Assembly: GCA_964538685.1 (NCBI GenBank)
Contig: CAZIFD010000003.1
Span: 757 to 64,756, forward strand
Origin: an uncultured Bdellovibrionales bacterium
GTDB taxonomy: Bacteria; Patescibacteriota; Minisyncoccia; Moranbacterales; UBA2206
Length of the DNA stretch: 64,000 bases
Reading direction: 5' to 3'
Positions within the stretch are counted from its first letter, which is position 1, and each line of letters starts with the position of its first letter. The notes under the pieces were generated by a model that saw only the letters and a program-made list of their open reading frames with translations, made no database searches and had not been told where the DNA came from. Positions 25,303-46,975 of this stretch are shown piece after piece. Made by a program: the position numbers and the translations under genes.

Positions 25303-26940
25303 TTAACATTTTTTTTCAAGCATTTCTTTGGCCATTGCAATTGCTTCCGTACTGCTTTTAGCAACAAATTTTTCTCCCCCCAAAAGATCAATAATTCCGT
25401 TCTTCTTCAAATTTCTAAAAACATTTTTTTGCATAGTGGCTAAAATAATTTTTCCGCCATTCGCAAGCACTTCGTCAATTAAAAGTTCCAAAGCGTGCAT
25501 AGCTGTCGCATCAATTTCATCTACATGTTTCATACGAATAATCAAAACTCCGTCTTGAGAATATCCCATACGCTCCTGCATCACACTGGCGGCGCCGAAA
25601 AACATTGGTCCATTTATTTCATACAAAGAAATTTGCGGAAAATTACTGATACTGGCATGCAATTTTTTACTTCCCTCACTGCCAATTTTTACATTATCTT
25701 CCAAACTGATCACTCGGATATCACTCACGCGTTTAACAAACAACAATGCCGCCATCACAACCCCAACTCCCACTGCCACAGTCAAATCCGCAAAAACTGT
25801 CAAAAGAAAAGTCGCAAGCAAAACAATGACATCGCGTCGGGGAGCTTTCATCAGTTTTTTGAAATGATCAATTTCAGCCATATTATAAGCCACAATAAGT
25901 AAAATCGCAGCCAAGGCAGACAATGGAATAACTTTAGCATAGCGAGCAAAAATTAAAATAATCAGAAGCAAAACAAAAGCGTGGATGATTCCGGCTATTC
26001 TGGTTCTTGCTCCGTTTTTAATGTTTGTGGCAGTTCTTGCTATCGCTCCTGTCGCCGGAATTCCTCCAAAAAAAGGCACCACCACATTGCCAATTCCTTG
26101 CGCAATCAATTCTTTGTTTGAATTATGTTTTGTTCCGGTCATACCATCTGCCACTACTGCAGAAAGCAAAGACTCAATTGCGCCCAGCATAGCTACCGTA
26201 AAAGCCGAAGGCAAAAGAAGCTTCATATTTTCAAAATTGAAATCCAACATATGAAAAGACGGCAGACCGGCTGGAATATCCCCTACAATCGGAATTTTGC
26301 CAGCAAAAAAAAGACTAGCGACAATTCCCCCCAAAAGAGCTACGGGTGCCGGCGGAAATTTTTTATTGTATTTTTTCCAAATGAAAAAAACTGCCAAAGT
26401 AACCAAACCAACAACTATGGCTGGCAAGGTTATGCCTCGTTCAAAACTTTCAAAAATCATTTTGACCGTATCAATAAAATCAAGCGGGCGCTTGCCTTCA
26501 AAATCCAAACCGAGGAAATTTTTTATCTGACCAGAAAATATTATTACTGCAATACCAGAAGTAAATCCAACGGTAACGGGATATGGGATATATTTAATGA
26601 TTGATCCGAACTTAAAAGCACCCATCAAAATCAATATGATACCCGCCATAAATCCTGTCATCAACAATCCTTCCACTCCAAATTTATTAACAATACTCAA
26701 TAAGATCACAATAAATGCTCCCGTTGGTCCGGACACTTGATATTTTGAACCCGAAAAAACAGCAATGATTCCACCGGCAATTATTGCTGTATAAAGTCCT
26801 TGCTCAGCGCTTACTCCCGAAGCAATGGCAAAGGCGATAGATAGTGGCAAAGCCACCAAACCAACAACTATCCCTGCAATCAAATCTGCTTTCAAATCAT
26901 TTTTTAGGTACATCCTGACTGACTTTTTTGTAAAAAACAT
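25303..26940 (-). CDS. SulP family anion transporter with C-terminal STAS domain
   Basis: 545 aa polytopic protein with a STAS-like C-terminal tail. Confidence 0.85.
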   Translation of the reverse strand: MFFTKKSVRMYLKNDLKADLIAGIVVGLVALPLSIAFAIASGVSAEQGLYTAIIAGGIIAVFSGSKYQVSGPTGAFIVILLSIVNKFGVEGLLMTGFMAGIILILMGAFKFGSIIKYIPYPVTVGFTSGIAVIIFSGQIKNFLGLDFEGKRPLDFIDTVKMIFESFERGITLPAIVVGLVTLAVFFIWKKYNKKFPPAPVALLGGIVASLFFAGKIPIVGDIPAGLPSFHMLDFNFENMKLLLPSAFTVAMLGAIESLLSAVVADGMTGTKHNSNKELIAQGIGNVVVPFFGGIPATGAIARTATNIKNGARTRIAGIIHAFVLLLIILIFARYAKVIPLSALAAILLIVAYNMAEIDHFKKLMKAPRRDVIVLLATFLLTVFADLTVAVGVGVVMAALLFVKRVSDIRVISLEDNVKIGSEGSKKLHASISNFPQISLYEINGPMFFGAASVMQERMGYSQDGVLIIRMKHVDEIDATAMHALELLIDEVLANGGKIILATMQKNVFRNLKKNGIIDLLGGEKFVAKSSTEAIAMAKEMLEKKC

Positions 26941-27156
26941 AGCCGTAAATTTTGTTAATTAAAAATAAAGTCCAGCCTTTTGGGCTGGTTAACCGGTAAC
27001 TATAAATTGCCAGAAAAACAAAACACCGCGTGCACTAACAAACGCTGGTGATTCTATATTTCAAACTATTAAGGCACTTGGCTCACAATGATAGATTATA
27101 TTCTCATTTAAAAATTTTGCAAGTGCTTGTTTTTATGCATTTTTACAGATGATTTA

Positions 27157-27251
27157 TTCCTGAATTAATTCGGGAATTTGTTGCCAATTAAGTAAGCTAA
27201 TGACCGTCCCAGAATGGTTCTATTTTTTTATTATATCACTAAACAAAAACA
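27157..27251. repeat. 95-bp direct repeat, copy A (94/95 identical to 33651..33745). Contains a near-palindromic operator TTCCTGAATTAATTCGGGAA and a minus-strand extended -10 (TGATATAAT)
   Basis: Direct sequence comparison of the two copies. Confidence 0.85.
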
Positions 27252-27556: not shown

Positions 27557-28939
27557 TCATACCCTTTCACCCCCTTTCTCAATCATCTCTTCAACTTTTC
27601 TTTTGGCTTCTTCTAATAATTCTTTGGCTTTCCTGCGCGCTCCATGTGACTTCTGCACAAGATTGGCAATTTTTTCTTGAATTTCTTTTGGCAAAATTGG
27701 AACAACGACATTTTTAATTTGCTCCGGTTTCCAGTGAGCAATGACCGACCCGCCAGCATCTCGTTCAGCCTGCATTTGTCCGACCAAAGAATTTAGACAT
27801 AGTGCCAAATATTCTGCTTCGACATCATCATCTTTTAATTTTAACCGCAAAGTTCCGCCAGAAATAATACCTTGGATATCTTCTTTGAGAACGTAAGCAA
27901 TCCCTGGCGTCGCATCCTTGGTTAAAAGGATTTCGCCTTTTTTCGGCTCAAAATTATTTTTTAACTCATCATATAGCTTATCGCTCAAGTATTTTTGATC
28001 ACTTTCAACCACCCCAAATTTTGTCATACTACTAACTCGAATAAAAACTTTGCCTTCTTCCTGATATTCTTCCGCTCCAACCTCAATCCCTTTTCTCACA
28101 GAAACCAAATCGCTCAGTTTTTTGAAATTTTGAGATTTGATTTTCAAAAATAGTTTCTCATATTTTTTTTGAAAATATTCCGCATCTATCCGCTCTGCAC
28201 CCAAGACATCCGAAAAATTTACAATCGTTGATAAATTTTCCCCCGCATCAGAATTTTCTAAATTCAATTCTTTCAAGAGTAGCCTTTCGGCTCGTTGATA
28301 AAAGCTAATAGACTTTCTTTTTTCATTTACAATTTCAGAATATAAATCTTCAAAAATATCATACTTTGCACTTTCGCTTAATGGCACAATTAAACTCTCT
28401 ATATCTAAAACATTTAACTTTAATTGGATATTTCCACTAGCTTTTCTAAAAATTTGCGCCTGACCAAACTTGCTTAATAGAAAAAATAAAATGAAAGATT
28501 TTATTTTATTGTTTAAATTTTGCAATCTTATTCCAATATTATTTTCGCTTATATTAACTTCCCCGAAGCTATCATCAATAACAGACAGCCTGCCAATTGT
28601 AGCAATTTTTGATAGAACGATATCTCCAATATTCAAATGGGTGCTATAAATTCTTTTATTTTCTTCCTCTGAAATATAAACTAAATTATCTTTATCAATA
28701 AAAATGTCCGAAATATCACCAATGCGAATAAATGGGATGCCGTCGCTTTGATATGATTCGCTTTTCAGGGTAGAGCCAAATGGACCGCTAAAAACTTTTT
28801 CTGATATATTTTTTATTGTTTCGAATTTATTTTTTTTTATTTGATTTTCCACATCTAAATACTCTGGCTGATAATATTCAGCATCCAATCGCATCGCGCC
28901 TTCAAGTTGAGATTTTTGGATTATTGAAAAAGTTATCAT
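27557..28939 (-). CDS. hsdS: Restriction-modification specificity subunit (HsdS/BcgIB-like, two target-recognition domains)
   Basis: Duplicated TRD-plus-conserved-spacer architecture (RLDAEYYQPEY ... ERIDAEYFQKKY). Confidence 0.8.
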   Translation of the reverse strand: MITFSIIQKSQLEGAMRLDAEYYQPEYLDVENQIKKNKFETIKNISEKVFSGPFGSTLKSESYQSDGIPFIRIGDISDIFIDKDNLVYISEEENKRIYSTHLNIGDIVLSKIATIGRLSVIDDSFGEVNISENNIGIRLQNLNNKIKSFILFFLLSKFGQAQIFRKASGNIQLKLNVLDIESLIVPLSESAKYDIFEDLYSEIVNEKRKSISFYQRAERLLLKELNLENSDAGENLSTIVNFSDVLGAERIDAEYFQKKYEKLFLKIKSQNFKKLSDLVSVRKGIEVGAEEYQEEGKVFIRVSSMTKFGVVESDQKYLSDKLYDELKNNFEPKKGEILLTKDATPGIAYVLKEDIQGIISGGTLRLKLKDDDVEAEYLALCLNSLVGQMQAERDAGGSVIAHWKPEQIKNVVVPILPKEIQEKIANLVQKSHGARRKAKELLEEAKRKVEEMIEKGGERV

Positions 28940-28940
28940 T

Positions 28941-29270
28941 TTATTTGCTAAAAATCCACTTATATTTTTTAAGTTTTTCGAGATATGTTAACTCTGCCTT
29001 CTTTTTATCTATTTTATTATCATATTTTACCCTTAAGACATTCTCGATTTTTGTTCTGATGCCAGAAAAAGTTAGGCCTCTTCTAGCCATATCCGCCTTA
29101 ATATTTTCTTGATCTTTCAAATATTCATTTTTTAATTCTGCTATTTCTATTCTCTTTATTTCTATTTCCTTATCAATTTCAAGGCCCTTTAATTTTCTAT
29201 TTTCTAAATACAAATAGACAGTCATCAGTCCCAATATGCCATTCAGTATTTTGGATATTATATCCCACAT
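28941..29270 (-). CDS. Small protein with N-terminal TM and coiled-coil
   Basis: 109 aa with a 2-bp gap to hsdS. Confidence 0.45.
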   Translation of the reverse strand: MWDIISKILNGILGLMTVYLYLENRKLKGLEIDKEIEIKRIEIAELKNEYLKDQENIKADMARRGLTFSGIRTKIENVLRVKYDNKIDKKKAELTYLEKLKKYKWIFSK

Positions 29271-29276
29271 ATTCCT

Positions 29277-29591
29277 TTATAAAATTTTAACTATAATTTT
29301 AATCATAAAATAAGCTGAAACTATTAAACCAAACAAAAACATTCCCCATAGAAACTTTCCAAAATATGTTGTCTCATAGCTAAAAATTCCGCTAGGAGTG
29401 GGTAAAGAGTCTTTTCTTTTACCCAACAAAATTGAAAGTCCCATAATAGTCACCCCCATTGATAAACCGAACAAATTTTTATTTTCAAGAAAAGAAATGT
29501 CATACTGAACAGAAATAAACATCAAAAAAATTCCCAAATAAATAAAGATGTAAAATTTATTAATTTGTAATTTTCCAATGACTTCCTTCAT
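29277..29591 (-). CDS. Small 3-TM membrane protein
   Basis: 104-aa hydrophobic ORF in the same operon. Confidence 0.45.
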   Translation of the reverse strand: MKEVIGKLQINKFYIFIYLGIFLMFISVQYDISFLENKNLFGLSMGVTIMGLSILLGKRKDSLPTPSGIFSYETTYFGKFLWGMFLFGLIVSAYFMIKIIVKIL

Positions 29592-29644
29592 TTTTAAAAA
29601 TATTATCCTTGATTAAAGCGTATTATTGGTGAGTATAGCGACTA

Positions 29645-29756
29645 TTGACAATCTATCAGAAACTGCTATACTTACAATGTCTTTCGGTCAACATAGACTG
29701 AAAGGGTATTACATCCAAGAGCAGTCCTCCTTGCGGAGGGCTGTTTTATTTCTTTT
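29645..29756 (+). ncRNA. Candidate small RNA, antisense-oriented within the RM/NYN operon
   Basis: Near-consensus promoter (TTGACA 29645-29650, 16-nt spacer, TATACT 29667-29672). About 78 nt downstream lies a GC hairpin (CAGTCCTCC-TTGC-GGAGGGCTG) followed by TTTTATTTCTTTT. An 8-bp inverted repeat (AGTATAGC/GCTATACT) brackets the promoter. Confidence 0.3.
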
Positions 29757-30327
29757 CAGATCTGTATCTCAACTCCTTCCCCCAAACATCTTCTTCAATT
29801 TTCAATACATCAAAATATCCGTCGCCACCGGTTTTCAATTCCCGAGAAGCGTTGTTTTCTGAAGAAAAAATATATACCTTCTTGCCCCTATTTTTTAAAT
29901 AAGTTACCAATGCTAAAAAATCCGAATCTCCACTGAATAATATCGCAGTATCATATTTCTTTATATGGTGCATTGCATCTATTGTCATTTCAACATCCAT
30001 GTTTCCCTTTTCCTCGATAGCCTGTCCGTTATCCGTAACTATCGAAATGCGTTTCAGTTCCTTTTTTCTAACAACAAAACCCAAACCCTTCTTCAGGAAT
30101 GTAAAAAACTTATGCTTTCCATCCGTGCTATAATCACGAGTTCCTTCGGCCGGATAAGCAGTATAATAAAATACTTTTATTTCGGTTGACTCAAATTTGT
30201 TTTTAAGGTAGTTTCTTAATTTTTCTAAATCAAAAAGTCTCCCCTTCGTCTTTTGAGCTTGCCAAAGATTGGAAGCGTCAACAAAAACATAGACTGCATT
30301 TTTATTTTGTTTTTCTTGGTCATGCAT
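29746..30327 (-). CDS. NYN domain (LabA-like) nuclease
   Basis: Conserved acidic motifs VFVDASNL, DVEMTIDAM and SGDSDF. Sits 6 bp downstream of the methyltransferase gene. Confidence 0.75.
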   Translation of the reverse strand: MHDQEKQNKNAVYVFVDASNLWQAQKTKGRLFDLEKLRNYLKNKFESTEIKVFYYTAYPAEGTRDYSTDGKHKFFTFLKKGLGFVVRKKELKRISIVTDNGQAIEEKGNMDVEMTIDAMHHIKKYDTAILFSGDSDFLALVTYLKNRGKKVYIFSSENNASRELKTGGDGYFDVLKIEEDVWGKELRYRSEKK

Positions 30328-30332
30328 AATAT

Positions 30333-32264
30333 TTATTTTTTCATAAACCTCAAAAACTCTTCCGCGATTTCTTCCAGATCATGATCAATGATTTTCTTTC
30401 CATTCGGGTCAAACATCACATTTCCATCCTTGTCTTTCTTGTAGACATAATCCCCCGAAGTATCTTTTCCGCCTCTCTTTGAAACCGCCATAAAAATCGG
30501 ATAGTCATCTACTTTTGGACAAAGCGGTCCGGCCTTCGGATCATCATTCCATTTTTGCAAAAACAACACGCTTGTTTTTGTCCCGGTATGCGGCTTGAAA
30601 GTGTTTCCATGAAGTCCAACGACTGCCAAAAGCCTGGCTTTGTCCAGAAAGAAACGGCGCACATATTCCATTTGAGTATTATTCAGGATTCCTTGCGGCA
30701 AAACAATGGCCATTCTTCCGCCCGGTTTTAGAAAATTCAAGTCTCTTTCAATAAAAAGAACATCGCGAGAAACCTTGTTTTGATGCTTATTGGTTTTTTG
30801 AAAATCTTTGTCCCACTTAAAGCCCAGGTCATATCGATTGAGAAGTACCCCTTTGATTTCTCCGGCAAATGGCGGATTAGTGATGACTATATCAAAATCA
30901 AAGTCTGTCATTTTCTCCTGATTTCTTCTGTCTTCTTCCGGATCTTTTAATTTTCTAAGAAATGGCCGGAATTTAGCTTTGGCCTCTTCATTCCAAACTT
31001 CGCTGTCGAGTGAATTGGCATAAGTCACATTAGTTTTTCCGTCTCCAGCAATCAGCATCATGGCTTTTCCGATTTTAACACTGCGAGGATCAAAATCGAT
31101 TCCAAACAAACGTTTTTCGGCATAGTCTTTGCGTTCCACATCGTAGCGCTCGCCATATTTTTCTTTGGTAATTTCCCTTTTCCAAACATATTGCATGGCA
31201 TGAAGCAAAAAACCACAGCTTCCGGCTGCCGTGTCGATAATATAATCATTGGAAGTTGGAGCAAGCATCTTGACGGCCATATCAATAACATGGCGTGGTG
31301 TGAAATATTGGCCCTTTTCTCCTTTGGCATCCAGATTGATTAAATATTCAAAAGCATCGTCAATCACTTGAAGATTTGATCCAAACAGGCGGTATTTTTG
31401 AAGAAGAGAAACTGCCGGCACAACAACATTTTCTGGAATCTCCAATTCATCATTTGCCTTGAAAACTTCCCGCCACTCTCTTTTGGCATCTTCGAAAAGA
31501 CGTTCAATATTATTGAGATTTTCTTTGTTGGTAGCTCCAGCGATTACCCTAAACCTTCTATTTTCATTTCTTGGAGTCCGAATATCATCATAGAGCTTGG
31601 CATAGATAAGTTTGAAAATTTCATCAAAAGAATTAACGCCACTATTAGCCAGAACGACTTCCTGCAGATCATAGACCAGTTGCTGCAGATTTGGGATTTC
31701 ATCCAAGTCGTCATAAGTAAGCTTTTTTGTTCTAACATCCTCCACCGTTTCATTGAATTTGGGAATTTCCGGCAAATCTTCAAAAAGGTTAGGATCGGTT
31801 CGGAGAATATTATTTTGAATTTTTCCGTCCGTTAGAATCAGGATCGGCGCGCCAGTCGCATTAGCGTAGCTCTTGAGCTGCCCTAGTCCATCTTTTACAT
31901 CAGGTTTTTTGACCTCAACCACAAGGTATGGAGTTTTTCCGTCTTCCCGATAAATTACAATGTCCGCCCTTTTAGATCCAATCTCTCTTCCAAATTGAAC
32001 ATCTACCTCAACATCCAGTCGATCTAGGGGATATTTATAAAAATTAACCAGCTTATATATCATAAGTTGGCGAACAATTTCTTCCGGTTTAGCTTGGATA
32101 CTTTTTTTTCTTTTTAAACATTCAAGATAATATTTTCCTTCTTTTTCCGAAAAGCGAATAACTTCTTCAATAGTAATTCCTTCAAAAACCGAAAGCCCAA
32201 ATTGCATATCTGGATTATGAAATATCTTGCCCAAAATTTCGCTAGTCTTTTTTTGATCTACCAT
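30333..32264 (-). CDS. Fused PD-(D/E)xK endonuclease (HsdR_N-like) plus gamma-class N6-adenine DNA methyltransferase (BcgI-A-like type IIB / type I-like RM subunit)
   Basis: N-terminal D...EVK nuclease motif (RADIVIY...YLVVEVKKP). MTase motif I (IIDTAAGSCGFLL) and motif IV (NPPF). Confidence 0.8.
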   Translation of the reverse strand: MVDQKKTSEILGKIFHNPDMQFGLSVFEGITIEEVIRFSEKEGKYYLECLKRKKSIQAKPEEIVRQLMIYKLVNFYKYPLDRLDVEVDVQFGREIGSKRADIVIYREDGKTPYLVVEVKKPDVKDGLGQLKSYANATGAPILILTDGKIQNNILRTDPNLFEDLPEIPKFNETVEDVRTKKLTYDDLDEIPNLQQLVYDLQEVVLANSGVNSFDEIFKLIYAKLYDDIRTPRNENRRFRVIAGATNKENLNNIERLFEDAKREWREVFKANDELEIPENVVVPAVSLLQKYRLFGSNLQVIDDAFEYLINLDAKGEKGQYFTPRHVIDMAVKMLAPTSNDYIIDTAAGSCGFLLHAMQYVWKREITKEKYGERYDVERKDYAEKRLFGIDFDPRSVKIGKAMMLIAGDGKTNVTYANSLDSEVWNEEAKAKFRPFLRKLKDPEEDRRNQEKMTDFDFDIVITNPPFAGEIKGVLLNRYDLGFKWDKDFQKTNKHQNKVSRDVLFIERDLNFLKPGGRMAIVLPQGILNNTQMEYVRRFFLDKARLLAVVGLHGNTFKPHTGTKTSVLFLQKWNDDPKAGPLCPKVDDYPIFMAVSKRGGKDTSGDYVYKKDKDGNVMFDPNGKKIIDHDLEEIAEEFLRFMKK

Positions 32265-32268
32265 ATTA

Positions 32269-32907
32269 TTACTCTACTTTAGAAAGATTTAAAATTACTT
32301 TTCCCTGGAATTCAACTTCTTCCGGAATAATCACCTTGGCTTCATAGGCTGGATTTTCCGGTTTCAAATATCTCTTTCCGCCTTCAGCAATAAAGCGTTT
32401 AACAGTTGTTCCTTCATCCGTCCTGGCAATGACAATATCTCCGCTCTTGTATTCTTTTGATTCCTTAACTAATAATTTGTCCCCGTCATCGATGCCAGCG
32501 TTGATCATAGAGTCTCCGCTAACCTTTATGATAAAAACATCCTTTATCTGCTGAATATTTTCGTTATATAAAAATTTATCAGACAACGGCATCCAACTGG
32601 TAAAAGCATCGACATAAGATTCAATATATGGTCCGCCCGCGCTTGTTCCGGCAACCCTAACCAGAGGTTTTCTGTTTATTTCTTTATACCCTAAAGGCAA
32701 TATCTTAATTCCACGCGCTTGTCCATCCTCGCGCTTAATACATTCCTTCCTTTCTAATATCTCCAGAAAATTCAAAACCGATTGATTAGAAGACACACCC
32801 AATTCCTCTTTCAAGTCCGCCAAGGTTGGCGGAAATCCAGAAGATTGAATAGCGTCATATATTGACTCAAGGACTTTTTTCTGTTTTGAAGTAAGATATT
32901 TACTCAT
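32269..32907 (-). CDS. lexA: LexA repressor (wHTH plus S24 peptidase)
   Basis: N-terminal LexA DNA-binding domain. C-terminal Ser (GDSM) and Lys (KR) catalytic dyad. 4 bp upstream of the MTase gene. Confidence 0.8.
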   Translation of the reverse strand: MSKYLTSKQKKVLESIYDAIQSSGFPPTLADLKEELGVSSNQSVLNFLEILERKECIKREDGQARGIKILPLGYKEINRKPLVRVAGTSAGGPYIESYVDAFTSWMPLSDKFLYNENIQQIKDVFIIKVSGDSMINAGIDDGDKLLVKESKEYKSGDIVIARTDEGTTVKRFIAEGGKRYLKPENPAYEAKVIIPEEVEFQGKVILNLSKVE

Positions 32908-33103
32908 TAATCTAATTATATATGACTATAAAGTCTTGTCAAGTGTCTTTATTTAAGCCATTTTTAAACTATTTATTTTAGGATAAAAATCTTGACTTAT
33001 TTCGAGAACCTGCTAAAATTATACCTTAGAAGTACTTTTCTGGTTCCCCAGAAACCAGTTAATAAACCTGCCGGAGTCTGGGGCAAGGGCCTACAATAAA
33101 ATT

Positions 33104-33420
33104 ATGATTGGATCATTCAGGGAACCTTTTCCGTTTAACAATGATTCTGTCTCGAGAAACGCACCTGATTCAATGGGAGTTTATTACTGCGGGAAATTAA
33201 AGACAGACAATGTCAACGCGCTTTCACCCGTCCACTATGTTGGAATGTCAGGAGAAAGCATAAAGGGTCGTTTACAGGATCACATACGAAAAGACAATTG
33301 GCCAGATGTGACTCATTTCGGTTTTGAGGTATGATCTACTGAGTCTGAAGCTGAAAATCAAGAAGCAAGAGAAATTGCTCGGCTACGACCAAAATATAAC
33401 GAGCAGGGAAAATAGTTATA
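33104..33420 (+). pseudogene. GIY-YIG nuclease gene interrupted by an in-frame TGA
   Basis: GVYY...YVGMSG...R motif, then a TGA at 33335. The frame continues through ESEAENQEAREIARLRPKYN, giving the GIY-YIG Glu/Asn residues. Confidence 0.5.
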
Positions 33421-33435
33421 TTTTGTAACGCTGGA

Positions 33436-33468
33436 AAGAGCTAGTTTAGTCTAGCTCTTTTTCATTTC
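33436..33468 (+). terminator. Hairpin terminator (AAAGAGCTAG-TTTAGT-CTAGCTCTTT plus T-rich tail)
   Basis: Palindrome followed by TTCATTTCTT. Sits between the convergent GIY-YIG pseudogene and the AbrB-like gene. Confidence 0.5.
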
Positions 33469-33638
33469 TTCCAATCCCTAATCACCACTCCCCCACGGAC
33501 GCGCTTGACGACAACTTTCTGTTTCTCTTTCCACCCAAGCTCACGAACAACTTCAATCGGCAAAGTCAATCCGATTGATCCGTTGCCGGATTTAGTCAGC
33601 TTGCGAATGTCTTTTTCGGTTAATTTTTTGTTTGCCAT
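33462..33638 (-). CDS. AbrB/SpoVT/MazE-family small DNA-binding protein (antitoxin-like), orphan copy
   Basis: 58 aa MANKKLTEKDIRKLTKSGNGSIGLTLPIEVVRELGWKEKQKVVVKRVRGGVVIRDWKK. Not in the ORF track (under 60 aa). It is 83% identical in core to the 35228..35407 paralog. Confidence 0.55.
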   Translation of the reverse strand: MANKKLTEKDIRKLTKSGNGSIGLTLPIEVVRELGWKEKQKVVVKRVRGGVVIRDWKK

Positions 33639-33650
33639 AAGTTTTATTAA

Positions 33651-33745
33651 TTCCTGAATTAATTCAGGAATTTGTTGCCAATTAAGTAAGCTAATGACCG
33701 TCCCAGAATGGTTCTATTTTTTTATTATATCACTAAACAAAAACA
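33651..33745. repeat. 95-bp direct repeat, copy B. Contains the perfect 20-bp palindrome TTCCTGAATTAATTCAGGAA and a minus-strand TGATATAAT -10 driving the AbrB-like gene
   Basis: Identical to 27157..27251 except one base (A/G inside the palindrome). Confidence 0.85.
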
Positions 33746-33758
33746 GCTACATTGGTAG

Positions 33759-34592
33759 CTATTTCTTACTGTTTAATTTAAGTTGCTTAGCATTCTTTTT
33801 GGTTATAACTTTTCTGCCAGTTTTTTTCTCTATGTCTTTTCTAGCATTACCGGCCACACTGCCACCTTCGCGCGCCGTTTGTCTGTTTTCTTCAAAATTT
33901 TTCGGCTCGCGTTTTTGCGAAATTTCAGTCGTGACAGTTTCCGCCAACATATTCAATACCAATTCCAAATTAGTCATATTGTCGCGCAAATTTTCTTTTT
34001 TCAAATCTTTTAATTTTTTATACTCTTTTGTTGTGAGTCCTGCCCAAGCTTTAGTAATTTCATTGGTTAATATAGCAAAATCCAAACCTTCTTTCACTCC
34101 ACGCATTTCCCATTCATCAGTTAAAGATTTTCTAATTTCAATACTCTTTAGTCTTTGATTGATCCATTCTCGGCTATAGCCTTTTTGTAGATAAGTTTTC
34201 AAGGCGCGATTGATTGCCAATTCCGGATCAGCGGTTTCCTCCAATCTTTCATAACCAACCCGAGCCAACCAAAGCTTAAAAGGCTCAGCCTTTGGCGAAG
34301 GCACGGATTGAATAAGGCGAAGAACATTTTCCGTATCCAAAACATCAGTCAGATAGAATTTGCCGTCGCTGGCTTGCATTTTCAGTTGTCCGATTTTTTC
34401 GGACAACTCACTTCCCTCCTTTTTCAGCTTATTTTTCAGGTCATTCCAGTATTTTCTTGGCCGATCAGTTTGCGCCAATATTTGAATTATATCCATCACC
34501 GAAAAATACCACAGCTCTTTTTCCTCGTCCCAGTGACGGCGAATTTGCTTACCCTCAAAAATCGCAATTTGTTTTATCTTCTTGGATTTCAT
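33759..34592 (-). CDS. DinD-like DNA-damage-inducible protein with N-terminal Bro-N domain
   Basis: N-terminus IAIFEGKQIRRHWDEEKELWYFSVMDIIQIL (Bro-N). The C-terminal half resembles DinD. Confidence 0.65.
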   Translation of the reverse strand: MKSKKIKQIAIFEGKQIRRHWDEEKELWYFSVMDIIQILAQTDRPRKYWNDLKNKLKKEGSELSEKIGQLKMQASDGKFYLTDVLDTENVLRLIQSVPSPKAEPFKLWLARVGYERLEETADPELAINRALKTYLQKGYSREWINQRLKSIEIRKSLTDEWEMRGVKEGLDFAILTNEITKAWAGLTTKEYKKLKDLKKENLRDNMTNLELVLNMLAETVTTEISQKREPKNFEENRQTAREGGSVAGNARKDIEKKTGRKVITKKNAKQLKLNSKK

Positions 34593-34675
34593 AGATTTAA
34601 ATTATTACTGCCGGTTTTCCCAATCTTCACTAAACCAGAAACCGCGGTTGTCATGATATAAATAATTCCTTTCAT
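34589..34675 (-). other. 28-codon mini-ORF encoding a GIY-YIG-like N-terminal fragment (MKGIIYIMTTAVSGLVKIGKTG); its TGA overlaps the ATG of the DinD-like gene
   Basis: Direct translation. GIIY and KIGKT match GIY/YIG positions. The ATGA overlap suggests coupling or a relic of a fused GIY-YIG/T5orf172-Bro-N gene. Confidence 0.3.
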
Positions 34676-34850
34676 ATTTATTCACTTAAATAGTATTTTC
34701 TATAGAATCATTTATTTAAATCATCTACTATATAATTAATCCCATCTTTAATTCCAACAAAACCCTTCGTATAAACATGGCCACTCTCTTTTGACTTCCC
34801 TATTTTATATAGGATATCACCAACTGAATCCCAAACCTCTCTTATCTTAT

Positions 34851-35240
34851 TTATGCAGCCTGATTAAAAAATCGATAGTTGTCTTCCTGAATAATATTTT
34901 TCGACAGATGACCAATGTGCTGATTGCGGAGTATCACGCAAAATTTCATTTCTTTTTTTGCATTATCAATATCAATCTTTCGTGCGCCTTCTAAATCAAT
35001 GGCATATAGTGACCAACAGTCTTTTCTTTTTTGAAAAAATAAATCTATAGTTATCGCAATACTTCTAGTTAGATTATCAAGTATGAGCTGAAAACCAAAG
35101 TTATATCGATTACTTTTTATTTCAATGTTTTGGAAGAACTTATCATAAGCGTAAAGCTGATCATGTAATTTTAACCACTCCCTATAGAGAAAATGATAAA
35201 TTTTTTCTTTCTCTTTTTCCATTTCCCTTACTTCCTCCAA
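34851..35240 (-). CDS. Hypothetical protein with HEPN-like Rx5H motif (candidate toxin)
   Basis: 129 aa, predicted helical, with RNQHIGH near the C-terminus. Its start overlaps the stop of the upstream AbrB-like gene by 13 bp. Confidence 0.4.
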   Translation of the reverse strand: MEEVREMEKEKEKIYHFLYREWLKLHDQLYAYDKFFQNIEIKSNRYNFGFQLILDNLTRSIAITIDLFFQKRKDCWSLYAIDLEGARKIDIDNAKKEMKFCVILRNQHIGHLSKNIIQEDNYRFFNQAA

Positions 35241-35407
35241 TCCTTAATCACTACTCCTCCACGAACGCGCTTAACAATAACCTTTTGCTTTTCTTTCCAG
35301 CCTAAATCATCCACCATATCTTTCGGCAAAGTAAGCCCGATAGATTTCCCACCACCGGATTTGGTTAATTTTCTAATATTATTCTCGCTTTGAATTCTTC
35401 TGGCCAT
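35228..35407 (-). CDS. AbrB/SpoVT/MazE-family small DNA-binding protein (candidate antitoxin)
   Basis: 59 aa MARRIQSENNIRKLTKSGGGKSIGLTLPKDMVDDLGWKEKQKVIVKRVRGGVVIKDWRK. Preceded by the CTGAATTAATTCCTGAAT operator-like motif. Confidence 0.55.
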   Translation of the reverse strand: MARRIQSENNIRKLTKSGGGKSIGLTLPKDMVDDLGWKEKQKVIVKRVRGGVVIKDWRK

Positions 35408-35524
35408 ATTTTTGTTTTATAAATTACTGAATTAATTCCTGAATACTTTCAGCTTTTCAGACTTATTCTCCCCCTCAAAAACTACCCTAAGCTTATAACA
35501 AAACACGGCTTTAGTAAAACCAAG

Positions 35525-35556
35525 TTTGATATCAAAAAACCCGCCGTTAGGCGGGA
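35525..35556 (-). terminator. Rho-independent terminator (CCCGCC-GTTA-GGCGGG plus T-run on the minus strand)
   Basis: GC hairpin followed by T-run, immediately after the 35547..36173 gene. Confidence 0.55.
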
Positions 35557-36173
35557 TTATTTACTCTTTTTTTTGCTTTTTCCCAAGCATACCTATATTC
35601 ATCTTCTTTTTCTGGACACACCAGCATTCTCCATTTGAATAATTTTTCCGCTTTCCCAGCTTGTTCTGCCAATAAAAATTCTCTCCTTAAAGCAAGTTGA
35701 TGATTCCTCTCTCTCATTTCTTGAGTAAATTCTTCCTCCCTTTCTTCCAAAAAACCCCTCTTTGCTCTTATCCATACTTCCGTTATCTCGTGCTCAATAA
35801 TGAAAGGAATCAAATCCTCATAATTTTCTCCGTCTATAGAGAACTTGCTAATATCAATGGCTATTTCAAGATTGGTGATATATTTTTCAAAATCATCTTT
35901 TGGGCTGATTTTAAAATTTATTAACCCAAGCGCCGGACTTTCAGCAAAATTTTCGCTCCAATTTTCATCATCAATCATACTGGAAAGCCAACTCAAAAAT
36001 TCTTGATGACTAAAATAGCTTATCTTATTTTTAGCCAATTCATAAAATGATTTTTTAGAATCATTAATGCTTTTCTCAATTTTGTGAGGAGGATTAATAT
36101 TTGAAGATTCTGGCATTTTAAACATTTTATACTTTCTTTCGTCTGTTTCATCCTTGTTTTGAAAATTCTCCAT
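35547..36173 (-). CDS. Hypothetical protein
   Basis: 208-aa acidic ORF with no recognised motif. Adjacent to the tRNA-Ser pair. Confidence 0.45.
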   Translation of the reverse strand: MENFQNKDETDERKYKMFKMPESSNINPPHKIEKSINDSKKSFYELAKNKISYFSHQEFLSWLSSMIDDENWSENFAESPALGLINFKISPKDDFEKYITNLEIAIDISKFSIDGENYEDLIPFIIEHEITEVWIRAKRGFLEEREEEFTQEMRERNHQLALRREFLLAEQAGKAEKLFKWRMLVCPEKEDEYRYAWEKAKKRVNNPA

Positions 36174-36190
36174 AATATTAATAAAACTTC

Positions 36191-36280
36191 TGGCGGGAAG
36201 GCAGGGATTTGAACCCTGGGACCCTTTTACAGGTCAACACGTTAGCAGTGTGCCGCTTTCAACCACTCAGCCACCTTCCC
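36191..36280 (-). tRNA. tRNA-Ser (anticodon GCU)
   Basis: Manual fold: GGGAAGG acceptor, long variable arm, anticodon loop CUGCUAA, encoded CCA. Confidence 0.85.
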
Positions 36281-36308
36281 AATATATATTTTTTAAAACT
36301 TCACTTTT

Positions 36309-36405
36309 TCTTTCCGGCGGAAGAGGTGAGATTCGAACTCACGGAACCCTTTCAGGTTCGACAGTTTTCAAGACTGTTCCCTTAAACCACTCGGGCACTC
36401 TTCCC
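36309..36405 (-). tRNA. tRNA-Ser (anticodon UGA)
   Basis: Manual fold: GGAAGAG acceptor, long variable arm, anticodon loop CUUGAAA, T-loop GTTCGAATC. Confidence 0.85.
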
Positions 36406-36532
36406 CTAATCCAATTTTCGCATTTTAGCATTTAATAATCAATTTGTAAACCCAAGCTATTTTTTTATTATAACCTATTTTGGATAAACAATTAATCGTG
36501 CTAAAATCAAAAAAGAAAAATAAGCTAAAAAA

Positions 36533-37144
36533 ATGGATATAGGAAATATTTCACGACACAAAAAAAATTTGGATCGCGATCAAAAAATGGGCGAATTTTT
36601 GCGAAAAGATTTGGAAGCGGAAAAAAGAAAAATGATTGCCGAGGAAGAATCGCTCCAACCTAAAGAAAAACCTTTTCCCAAAAATACGCTGATGCATTGG
36701 CAAGCACCGGATTATGAACCGACCTTTCGCCGAGATGATCGCTGGTACAAATATATCTCTCTTGTAATTGCCGCCATTGTCGGTTATGCCGTTTATATGA
36801 ACAGTCCGATTATGGCCATTACATTTATATTGATCGGGCTGGTTGGTTATTTGTATCTCAAAAAAGAACCGGAAATTTGGGATTTTTTCATTACCAAAAA
36901 AGGAGTTGTGGCTGGAAAAGAACTTTATGCCTTTGAAGACATTGATTCTTTTTGGATTTTTTATGAACCAGGAGAAACAAAAGTGATCAGTCTTCACAAC
37001 AAAAAAAGCATGTTCCCCTTTGTTCATATTCCGGTTCATGACCAAGATCCGGTTCAAATCCGAGAAATTCTCCTCAAATTTATTCCTGAAATAGAGCAAG
37101 AACCTAGCTTTATAGACACTTTGGAAAAATTTATTGGAATTTAG
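36533..37144 (+). CDS. Hypothetical membrane protein (2 TM)
   Basis: 203-aa ORF followed by a strong terminator. Confidence 0.5.
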   Translation: MDIGNISRHKKNLDRDQKMGEFLRKDLEAEKRKMIAEEESLQPKEKPFPKNTLMHWQAPDYEPTFRRDDRWYKYISLVIAAIVGYAVYMNSPIMAITFILIGLVGYLYLKKEPEIWDFFITKKGVVAGKELYAFEDIDSFWIFYEPGETKVISLHNKKSMFPFVHIPVHDQDPVQIREILLKFIPEIEQEPSFIDTLEKFIGI

Positions 37145-37150
37145 TTTAAA

Positions 37151-37195
37151 AGCAAAAAAGAACGGCTGTTGCGTTCTTTTTTGCTTTCTCTCTAG
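37151..37195 (+). terminator. Rho-independent terminator (13-bp stem GCAAAAAAGAACG / CGTTCTTTTTTGC)
   Basis: Long palindrome plus T-run. Confidence 0.6.
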
Positions 37196-37247
37196 TTTTG
37201 TGGTATTTGTTATTTGTCAGACGAGACAAGCGGAGGAGACACAAGAA

Positions 37248-37315
37248 GTCCTTGTAGCTCAGTGGACCTGCCCGGCATTGCCTTCGGCATCAGCCGATGG
37301 CAGGCGGGTAGAGCG
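37248..37315 (+). other. Duplicated 5' fragment of tRNA-Arg (positions 1-27) with a 43-nt structured hairpin inserted in the D-loop
   Basis: GTCCTTGTAGCTCAGTGG, then ACCTGCCCGGCATTGCCTTCGGCATCAGCCGATGGCAGGCGGG, then TAGAGCG. The intact tRNA follows 30 nt downstream. Confidence 0.5.
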
Positions 37316-37344
37316 CCTCTTGGGATTACAAAAATTAAACAAAA

Positions 37345-37417
37345 GTCCTTGTAGCTCAGTGGATAGAGCGTTTGGTTGCGGTCCAAAAGGTCGCAGGTTC
37401 AATTCCTGCCAAGGACA
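37345..37417 (+). tRNA. tRNA-Arg (anticodon GCG by manual fold; needs tRNAscan confirmation)
   Basis: Cloverleaf: acceptor GTCCTTG/CAAGGAC, D-stem GCTC/GAGC, anticodon stem TTTGG/CCAAA, loop TTGCGGT, T-loop TTCAATT. Confidence 0.75.
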
Positions 37418-37418
37418 C

Positions 37419-38249
37419 CTAGTATTTCTTTTCAAATTCAGCAAATTCTTCTAACATTTCCTGAGTAATTTTTCCGATTTTTCCATTCCCTACTTTCCAA
37501 GAATCAACCTTAACAATCGGAACTACAAATTTATTGGTAGCTGTCAAAAAGATTTCATCAGCTTTTTTGAGCTCATCAATTGAAACTTCCCGCTCTTCAA
37601 CCGGGTATTTTTTCTTAGCCAATTTCAAAACCAAATTCCGAGTAATGCCATGAAGAATTCCGTCTTTGGGAGTGATAATTTTTCCATCTTTGACCATAAA
37701 AATATTACTAGTGGAAGCTTCCAGAACCAATCCGTTTTTCACAAAAAGAATTTCCAAAGCTTTTTGCTTATTTTTTTTATCTTGCAATTTAATCGCTTCC
37801 ACATAGTTTGTGATTTTGCATTTTGGAAGATTTCGGGAAAACTCATGAGTTATGAGTTTAGCGCCCTTGGTATAAATTTCTTCGGGAAGATTGTAAAATC
37901 TTTCAATTAAAATATAGCAAGTCTGTTTTCCGACAGAAAAACCGTTCTCACTCACTCCTCCTGTCAGAACTGTTCTTATGGTTGATTTTTTGTGCCCATG
38001 AAGCTTGAGCAAATTTTTTAGTATTCCCTCATATTCCGAAAATGAAAATGGCACTTTGAGTTCAAGTTCTTTGGCTGAATTTCTAAATCGTTCAAAATGT
38101 TCCTTGCTTAAAAAAGGTTTCTCGCCGTTCGCACACATCACATCAAACACTCCGTAACCACGAAGGATTCCAATGTCATAAGGATCAATTTTTATCTTGT
38201 CCACAGTTGTTATTTTTCCGTTCCAATAGCAATGGTTTTTTTTGGCCAT
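37419..38249 (-). CDS. Class IV aminotransferase (branched-chain / D-amino-acid aminotransferase family)
   Basis: 276 aa with fold-type IV PLP motifs (EASTSNIFMV ... GITR). Confidence 0.75.
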   Translation of the reverse strand: MAKKNHCYWNGKITTVDKIKIDPYDIGILRGYGVFDVMCANGEKPFLSKEHFERFRNSAKELELKVPFSFSEYEGILKNLLKLHGHKKSTIRTVLTGGVSENGFSVGKQTCYILIERFYNLPEEIYTKGAKLITHEFSRNLPKCKITNYVEAIKLQDKKNKQKALEILFVKNGLVLEASTSNIFMVKDGKIITPKDGILHGITRNLVLKLAKKKYPVEEREVSIDELKKADEIFLTATNKFVVPIVKVDSWKVGNGKIGKITQEMLEEFAEFEKKY

Positions 38250-46906: not shown

Positions 46907-46975
46907 TGGCGGGTATAGTTCAATGGTAGAACACTGGTTTGTGGTACCAGCTACCTGGGTCCAATCCATCCGACC
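46907..46975 (+). pseudogene. tRNA-His-like fragment (intact acceptor-5', D-arm and GUG anticodon arm; no matching T-arm or 3' acceptor)
   Basis: GGCGGGTATAGTTCAATGGTAGAAC-A-CTGGT-TTGTGGT-ACCAG, then non-complementary sequence. Confidence 0.3.

Follow-up and report, generated by a model that had tools for sequence, protein, structure and literature searches.

A probably frameshifted HEPN_AbiU2-family gene behind a putative AbrB-type autoregulator in a window of Patescibacteria DNA

The window analysed here is a whole stretch of 64,000 nucleotides from contig CAZIFD010000003.1, which carries a Patescibacteriota lineage label. On its reverse strand, a gene for a small protein of the SpoVT/AbrB type (AbrB1) lies immediately ahead of a gene for a helical protein that carries the R-x5-H motif of HEPN RNases; a first-pass annotation, made from the letters alone, had described these as overlapping genes with the architecture of a toxin–antitoxin (TA) module. 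The locus comprises the following features, from the upstream end of the AbrB1 transcription unit to the end of the HEPN gene.

35540..35555 (-), terminator-like hairpin, CCCGCCTAACGGCGGG then a run of T (consensus scan and sequence)
35421..35444 (-), operator-like tandem repeat with a 12-nt period, ATTCAGGAATTA then ATTCAGTAATTT
35228..35407 (-), AbrB1, an open reading frame (ORF) of 59 aa, Pfam PF04014
34851..35240 (-), mechanically called ORF of 129 aa, with a TTG start at 35240
34854..35222 (-), 5' part of the HEPN gene, 123 codons, likely start ATG 35222
34908..34928 (-), codons of the Rx5H motif (RNQHIGH), with the predicted catalytic Arg and His
34853..34854 (-), frameshift site, one base missing in an Ala codon (DNA alignment and tblastn)
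34851-34853 (-), premature stop codon TAA of the HEPN gene
34708..34854 (-), 3' part of the HEPN gene, 48 codons and a stop, in the -1 frame

The 13-bp overlap reported for the two genes proved not to be real. TTG 35240 falls within the GAT-TGG codons for Asp-Trp at the conserved AbrB C-terminus (...KDWRK), and the ORF caller generated an identical -13 overlap at 5 of 80 unrelated AbrB loci; both the TTG start and the overlap are artefacts of ORF calling. Orthologue starts align with ATG 35222 (MEKEKEK... vs MKEEERK...), which lies 5 nt past the AbrB1 stop codon and downstream of a ribosome-binding-like GGAGG at 35234-35238, itself inside the AbrB1 gene. This ATG is likely the true start of the HEPN gene, and the product recorded in public databases is the corresponding 123-aa version (P0001; NCBI, ENA and Logan sources).

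An exhaustive profile search returned intact homologues that are all 165-206 aa long, the two nearest to the window protein having 172 and 185 aa. The C-terminus missing from the window protein (INKIREVW...VDDLNK; INKIREVWDSVGDILYKIGKSKESGHVYTKGFVGIKDGINYIVDDLNK and then a stop) is encoded in the -1 frame from the premature stop onward, and tblastn recovered two collinear pieces in different frames. Alignment of the DNA with the orthologues at loci L001 and L012 revealed that exactly one base is absent, GCTGC-ATAAAT standing against GCTACCATTGAT and GTTGCTATTGAT; with that single base restored, the protein is 171 aa long and collinear with its orthologues. We regard it as very probable that the window ORF is a frameshifted gene of the AbiU2 family, the 129-aa protein of the first-pass annotation being the 5' part of a gene of roughly 171 codons; the motif, present as described, had seemed to lie near the C-terminus only through truncation of the ORF.

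We read the deletion as a true 1-nt loss because the site lacks both a homopolymer and an X XXY YYZ slippery heptamer. That the HEPN gene is instead intact or fully expressed, the missing base being a sequencing or assembly error or being bypassed by a -1 ribosomal shift at GCA-TAA, is improbable. Such an explanation would account for two pieces that line up perfectly with the orthologues and lose no residue, and for a 3' piece that runs through its 48 codons with no further stop or decay, in a contig that comes from a metagenome assembly; however, the sequence GCTGC-ATAAAT itself offers no obvious cause for either kind of slip, the 123-aa product is recorded in all three sources, and the frameshift of another member, P0014, combined with an R to K change in its motif, speaks for real decay in the family. 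P0014 (137 aa; L099 1747-2290, and L100) is independently frameshifted, a few codons from the window site; its C-terminal part lies in another frame within an A-rich tract, Lys replaces the motif Arg, and the hsdS gene downstream of it in L099 is split into two ORFs. Judging by P0014, decay recurs in the HEPN family.

The sole Pfam match of the window ORF is HEPN_AbiU2 (PF18734), over the motif; it is weak (13.6 bits, E=0.047), and the repaired 171-aa sequence, at 18.1 bits, also stays below the gathering score of 26.8. The intact orthologue P0002 (57% identical), however, exceeds that score at 33.1 bits, and PF18734 is matched at E<=0.01 by 16 of the 30 family members, with no competing family. 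Whereas the first-pass annotation had seen no match to a classic family, the window protein can be assigned to PF18734 by transitivity, through P0002 and the family as a whole. The alignment to PF18734 covers the C-terminal part of the profile only, positions about 103-170 of 193.

HEPN domains have been described as four-helix up-down bundles with an insert between helices 2 and 3, in which an Rx4-6H motif with a polar residue (N/D/H) after the Arg lies at the end of helix 3 or where the loop to helix 4 begins, and helix 2 carries an acidic residue in an E-x3-[KR]-like setting (PMC3710099). The window protein agrees with this description in its motif and its helix-2 acidic residue because RNQHIGH is conserved and D49-x3-R53 is present. 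The Arg and His of the motif (R105-x5-H111 in the 129-aa ORF, R99/H105 in the 123-aa product) are nearly invariant across a 30-sequence alignment, conservation whose absence the first-pass annotation had named as grounds for giving up the HEPN assignment; the residue that follows the Arg in this alignment is N, S, H or D. D49-x3-R53 (123-aa numbering), in predicted helix 2 and with D in place of E, is invariant in the 8 closest homologues. An AlphaFold2 model of P0002, built on the 30-sequence alignment (predicted local distance difference test score, pLDDT, 94.1; predicted template modelling score, pTM, 0.89), has helices at residues 3-32, 42-62, 83-105, 122-145 and 159-171, with an insert after the second; R100 lies near the end of the third long helix (83-105) and H106 just beyond it, as PMC3710099 describes.

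Taken together, family, motif and model make it quite likely that the protein is a true HEPN RNase, so far as its sequence can tell. It would be surprising, by comparison, if this were an unrelated helical bundle of restriction–modification (R-M) islands that uses its Arg and His for binding or regulation. Searches by structure lean that way: two Foldseek searches of solved structures, one of them with the pLDDT-94 model, gave no significant hit, the only HEPN entry in the output, 3jrt, standing at rank 18 with E=1.5. The confinement of the Pfam matches to one part of the AbiU2 profile would fit such a bundle as well, as would the null result of hhalign, which found no relation between the family profile and a Ymh-type HEPN, and that of PADLOC, which had no model for the window ORF or P0002 and gave scattered weak matches for other family members, most having none. 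Foldseek, however, is weak on helical bundles, an orthologue lies above the Pfam gathering score, 16 of 30 members match HEPN_AbiU2 and nothing else, the conserved features are those listed for HEPN in PMC3710099, and the R-M-embedded context is the one that the same survey reports for AbiU2. The HEPN assignment of the first-pass annotation is favoured by PF18734 (via P0002), the conserved motif and its place in the AlphaFold2 model, with no confirmation of the fold from Foldseek. A PDB sequence-profile search returned a marginal match to Cas2 as its sole result (E=0.005, 49 residues), which we took as chance because the folds differ.

The subfamily is small: among 1.84 billion proteins it has 28 representatives when clustered at 50% identity, and no member of the HEPN family turned up when representative genomes were scanned; two alignments of the family, including the 30-sequence one, were too divergent for pattern scans. 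The HEPN part of the locus belongs to a known family, within which it represents a new and rare subfamily of short proteins (about 170-190 aa), and the copy here is read as a pseudogene. In the P0002 model, helix 4 (122-145) and the last helix (159-171) correspond to the frameshifted part, meaning that the 123-aa window product would keep the motif and lose a core helix and the terminal helix; because the frameshift stops translation just before helix 4, this product is, going by the model, most likely inactive.

AbrB1 is present exactly where the first-pass annotation had placed it, and matches PF04014 (MazE_antitoxin/AbrB in Pfam) at 31.2 bits against a gathering score of 24.7. The Pfam domain spans residues 19-55 of 59 and the domain as a whole extends over roughly residues 11-57, with no C-terminal tail. 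In AbrB-type antitoxins such as MazE and VapB, C-terminal tails wrap the toxins; since AbrB1 has 59 residues, of which the domain covers 19-55, it has no room for a tail of this kind. Nor was a toxin-binding segment found beside the DNA-binding domain of AbrB1, and the antitoxin model TIGR02609 is matched weakly, at model positions 2-43 of 74 alone. The 127 close homologues of AbrB1 are mostly 55-62 aa long, and the organism labels among its named relatives are mostly of the candidate phyla radiation (CPR)/Patescibacteria, by which the window probably belongs to that group as well. As far as sequence comparison goes, AbrB1 is a bare swapped-hairpin DNA-binding domain of the AbrB/MazE fold. The hairpin at 35540..35555 would terminate a 208-aa gene upstream, with the AbrB1 transcription unit starting separately.

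A census of 80 AbrB loci in representative genomes, mostly with CPR labels such as Moranbacteria, Nomurabacteria and Parcubacteria, provided a view of what AbrB genes precede. Counting as partner a downstream gene on the same strand at a gap of <=180 nt (65 loci), we found that the downstream genes fall into 45 unrelated clusters. The commonest Pfam families among them are N6_N4_Mtase (8), N6_Mtase (5), RadC (5), HsdM_N (4) and ResIII (3), and further partners include MmeI, D12, EcoRI methylase, Tsp45I, DpnI, PLD, Fic and patatin; a hidden Markov model of the HEPN family matched at 0 of the 80 loci. The closest relatives of AbrB1 likewise stand ahead of various genes: AbrB P0043 precedes a Type III mod-res pair, P0048 a run of RadC, C5 methylase and NgoFVII-like nuclease, P0051 a MerR-HsdM methylase and RhuM, and P0045 an EcoRI-type methylase (4-nt gap), RhuM and GmrSD.

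These closest relatives, 78-84% identical to AbrB1, thus precede unrelated genes, at the same tight spacing; AbrB1 is 78-83% identical to the AbrBs ahead of Type III Mod, EcoRI methylase, RadC and HsdM, and its identity to the AbrBs that stand beside HEPN orthologues, 62-68%, is below that. AbrB and HEPN were not found to occur together and co-vary across genomes. Because AbrB is conserved ahead of very different partners, specific binding of each partner is unlikely, and we consider it somewhat probable, from these comparisons, that a DNA-binding regulator describes AbrB better than a dedicated antitoxin does.

Approached from the HEPN side, an AbrB gene lies upstream at the three closest loci only (the window, L012 and L001), or 3 of about 13 contexts. 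In L012 the AbrB stop codon is 1 nt ahead of the HEPN ATG; in L001 a 287-nt spacer and a terminator-like hairpin part AbrB from HEPN, a Type III mod-res operon then follows, and the two genes may be separate transcription units. The L001 spacer, at 1025-1310, opens with the hairpin AAACCCCGATACTTATCGGGGTTTTTT. Most HEPN homologues have no AbrB and lie within R-M operons, the context listed for AbiU2 (PMC3710099), and the genes around them resemble those of CPR genomes. In L003, L005, L010 and L099 the HEPN gene is immediately upstream of hsdS, inside a methylase-hsdS operon, without AbrB; likewise without AbrB, it follows a methylase and an HNH gene in L007, follows an HD-domain gene on the P0008 contig, and sits next to a Ymh-type HEPN gene in L006. 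This last arrangement is a tandem (L006 3237-4513) in which the gene for a 239-aa Ymh-family protein (Pfam Hypoth_Ymh E=1e-25, motif RNRKAH) directly precedes that for a 175-aa AbiU2-like member.

We find it rather unlikely, on the strength of these surveys, that the window holds a genuine type II TA pair in which AbrB1 neutralises HEPN by direct binding and regulates its own expression, the toxin having decayed and left the antitoxin behind. The antitoxin-first order, the 5-nt spacing and the ribosome-binding site within the upstream gene are what such a pair would present, the adjacency is repeated in L012 (1 nt) and more loosely in L001, and the Pfam name MazE_antitoxin and the weak TIGR02609 'doc_partner' match point in the same direction; toxin decay is common, moreover, and L099 provides the second, independently frameshifted member. 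AbrB1, however, is without the C-terminal tail that would neutralise a toxin, as its partial coverage of the 74-position antitoxin model reflects, and shows no co-variation with its partner, being closer to AbrBs that precede methylases or RadC than to the HEPN-adjacent ones. Coupling as tight, at 4 nt, also joins AbrB to an EcoRI-type methylase, with similar coupling to other large enzymes. HEPN is found at none of the 80 AbrB loci and AbrB at a minority of HEPN loci; the L001 genes are split by the hairpin and spacer; the combination AbrB-HEPN is missing from the AbrB partner classes listed in PMC2701414; and the would-be toxin gene is frameshifted in the window. What survives of the TA-module architecture proposed at first is the gene order and the tight spacing; the frameshifted toxin, the tail-less AbrB, the unrelated partners and the missing co-variation tell against the rest.

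Three further features downstream of the HEPN gene bear on how AbrB1 might act.

33759..34592 (-), gene for a Bro-N domain protein of 277 aa (Bro-N E=1e-9), PADLOC candidate PDC-S13 (E=1e-131)
33649..33672 (-), perfect 24-nt palindrome AATTCCTGAATTAATTCAGGAATT, 10 nt upstream of the AbrB2 ATG
33462..33638 (-), AbrB2, a paralogous AbrB gene of 58 aa

AbrB2 is the nearby orphan paralogue that the first-pass annotation had noticed; it is 72% identical to AbrB1 and lies 1.77 kb away, start to start. Its palindrome and the tandem repeat of AbrB1 have the half-site TTCAGGAAT in common. The AbrB1 repeat lies 14-37 nt upstream of the AbrB1 ATG, and further upstream, at about 35465-35475, are a G-run and a -10-like GAGAAT. 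A similar layout is usual at AbrB loci: immediately past a TAGAAT-like box, the 75 nt before the ATG typically hold two or three copies of a repeat spaced at 12 nt. The closest AbrB relatives carry TTCAG[G/T]AAT as this repeat, and more distant ones TACGTAAT. Scoring an exact 7-mer repeated at 10-12 nt (all cases found were at 12 nt), we detected repeats in 31 of 70 AbrB upstream regions. Control windows taken at these loci had them in 3 of 210 cases, and shuffled upstream regions in a mean of 0.7 of 70. The repeat motif changes with the AbrB protein clade, as cognate operators would be expected to do, and the repeats would be the operators of their respective AbrB clades. We also considered the AbrB2 palindrome as a LexA box, lexA being adjacent, and rejected the idea: lexA has a consensus promoter of its own and no comparable site ahead of it, and the palindrome motif tracks AbrB clades in other genomes.

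The Bro-N/PDC-S13 gene is probably part of the AbrB1-HEPN operon, because it follows the HEPN gene on the same strand after 115 nt with no predicted terminator between. AbrB2 has no partner gene; it is followed by a 4-codon stub (MKKS and a stop, with an ATGA overlap) and then by a hairpin with a 12-bp stem at 33433-33462. The junction of AbrB2 and its stub (33433-33470) resembles that of AbrB1 and HEPN and may be what is left of a downstream gene that was deleted.

Beyond AbrB2, the window contains an R-M operon (27557..32907, reverse strand) of closely spaced genes in the order lexA, methylase, NYN, 104 aa, 109 aa and hsdS, encoding among others a 643-aa HSDR_N_2/N6_Mtase/Eco57I protein, a 193-aa NYN protein and a 460-aa HsdS; the 104-aa and 109-aa ORFs are membrane-like. 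The window HsdS is 48-54% identical to the HsdS that follows HEPN in L003, L005 and L010, the methylase shares 49% identity with its L010 counterpart, and LexA 65% with the one in L003. Because HsdS, methylase and LexA of the window match those of L003, L005 and L010 in this way, the slot before hsdS in the LexA-linked R-M operon is, by sequence comparison, a variable one, occupied by HEPN in relatives and by an NYN-domain protein in the window. With HEPN in this slot in L003, L005, L010 and L099, it looks like a variable position for RNase cargo.

Several smaller observations concern the surroundings of these genes. A 100-nt direct repeat, 98% identical and 6494 nt apart (27152-27251 and 33646-33745), contains the AbrB2 promoter/operator region and brackets AbrB2, a GIY-YIG-like fragment, lexA and the R-M operon through hsdS; its 27152-27251 copy precedes a SulP transporter gene (25303..26940) by about 210 nt, and the repeat may be a scar that recombination or insertion of the R-M island left behind. 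The GIY-YIG-like fragment, between AbrB2 and lexA, is a 76-aa ORF at 33104-33334(+) with weak similarity (E=0.056), probably a gene fragment. At the other end, the 208-aa gene (35547-36173, reverse strand) is the first of the island and matches no family in Pfam, NCBIfam or PADLOC. Two tRNA-Ser genes lie directly upstream of the island (36191-36404, reverse strand); we rejected integration of the island at tRNA-Ser, there being no tRNA-derived direct repeat within 30000-37500. The start of a tRNA-Arg(gcg) gene is duplicated exactly over 21 nt (19 nt of the gene and 2 nt upstream; 37246-37266 and 37343-37363), and this partial copy, which precedes the gene by 97 nt, may mark a past integration. 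Directly after tRNA-Lys, a borderline tRNA-like match at 46909-46959(+) scores 30.7 bits against a gathering score of 29 and has no ARAGORN call.

We favour, with a probability of roughly 0.6, the reading that the locus is a small operon of a defence island with an AbrB autoregulator at its head and a HEPN effector gene that is now a pseudogene. In outline, an AbrB1 dimer would bind the tandem 12-nt repeats between the -10-like box and its own start codon and, once bound, would repress the operon AbrB1 - HEPN - Bro-N/PDC-S13; such control may resemble that of the controller (C) proteins, which time and limit the expression of R-M operons, since in related genomes nearly identical pairings of an AbrB gene with operator-like repeats stand ahead of R-M methylases, RadC and other defence genes. 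The intact HEPN protein (about 171 aa) would be a metal-independent RNase acting through the Arg and His of its Rx5H motif, and could serve in abortive infection or as a second-line effector, a role that has been proposed for AbiU2 and R-M-embedded HEPN genes. The 1-nt deletion would then end HEPN translation before helix 4, with loss of function.

Several points weigh against this reading. The adjacency of AbrB and HEPN does recur at the three closest HEPN loci, and type II TA modules classically show such a layout as well, with 5 nt between the genes and the ribosome-binding site within the AbrB gene; operators are equally expected for a TA antitoxin, and DNA binding by AbrB is itself a prediction. 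The window ORF falls below the PF18734 threshold both raw (13.6 bits) and repaired (18.1 bits), neither Foldseek search of solved structures gave a significant HEPN match, and the deletion is read from an assembled metagenome contig.

A broader proposal, which we hold more tentatively than the operon itself, is that the AbrBs of about 60 aa in CPR bacteria, with their clade-specific 12-nt operators, form a portable, AbrB-fold counterpart of the R-M controllers. One cassette would be swapped ahead of methylases, RadC, HEPN and other defence genes, and, after horizontal transfer, would determine when and how strongly these genes are expressed; two such cassettes would then be present in the window, one before a decayed HEPN gene and one orphaned beside the LexA-linked R-M operon.

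The HEPN gene itself is ordinary, a decayed member of a known abortive-infection family. The locus is chiefly of use in pointing to AbrB as a large family of minimal regulators that head R-M and other defence operons and carry recognisable operator-like repeats. Heavy reliance on R-M systems is assumed for CPR bacteria; if the operator prediction is true, the cassette would be a testable handle on how their defence genes are controlled and exchanged. For annotation, the locus counsels caution, as an AbrB gene followed by a small ORF is not automatically a TA pair.

Among known systems, the HEPN family of the window protein shares with AbiU2-type HEPN proteins (PF18734) the Rx5H motif with a polar residue after the Arg, and the occurrence in R-M operons. 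The window copy differs from the AbiU2 contexts given in the 2013 HEPN survey by Anantharaman et al. (PMC3710099), the text of which makes no mention of AbrB, in having an AbrB gene upstream and in being frameshifted. The HEPN genes that stand before hsdS in the methylase-hsdS operons of L003, L005, L010 and L099 recall PrrC and RloC, the anticodon nucleases of Type I R-M loci, and suggest by analogy an RNase that an R-M system keeps latent or that serves as its backup; the concept of an RNase latent within an R-M locus comes from PMC3710099. Unlike PrrC and RloC, these HEPN proteins are single-domain, with no ATPase domain, and the window gene lies outside the R-M operon, an NYN-domain protein taking the slot there.

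AbrB1 resembles MazE, VapB, PrlF and AbrB-type Phd in domain family, upstream position, tight coupling and upstream repeats. Unlike these antitoxins, whose partners are PIN, MazF, Doc and RelE toxins (Makarova et al. 2009, PMC2701414), it has no toxin-wrapping tail, it stays highly conserved while the partner changes completely, and the partners of its family are mostly DNA methylases and other R-M genes. The literature we searched, a limited collection, yielded no AbrB-fold R-M controller, and such regulators may exist. The AbrB family is like the R-M controller (C) proteins in being small, first in the operon and ahead of R-M genes, with repeated operator-like sites. C proteins have a helix-turn-helix, Xre-like fold, whereas AbrB has the AbrB/MazE fold by Pfam, making it an analogue at most; AbrB most often precedes a methylase, not a nuclease; and, unlike the operons of R-M controllers, the window operon carries HEPN and Bro-N genes and no R-M system.

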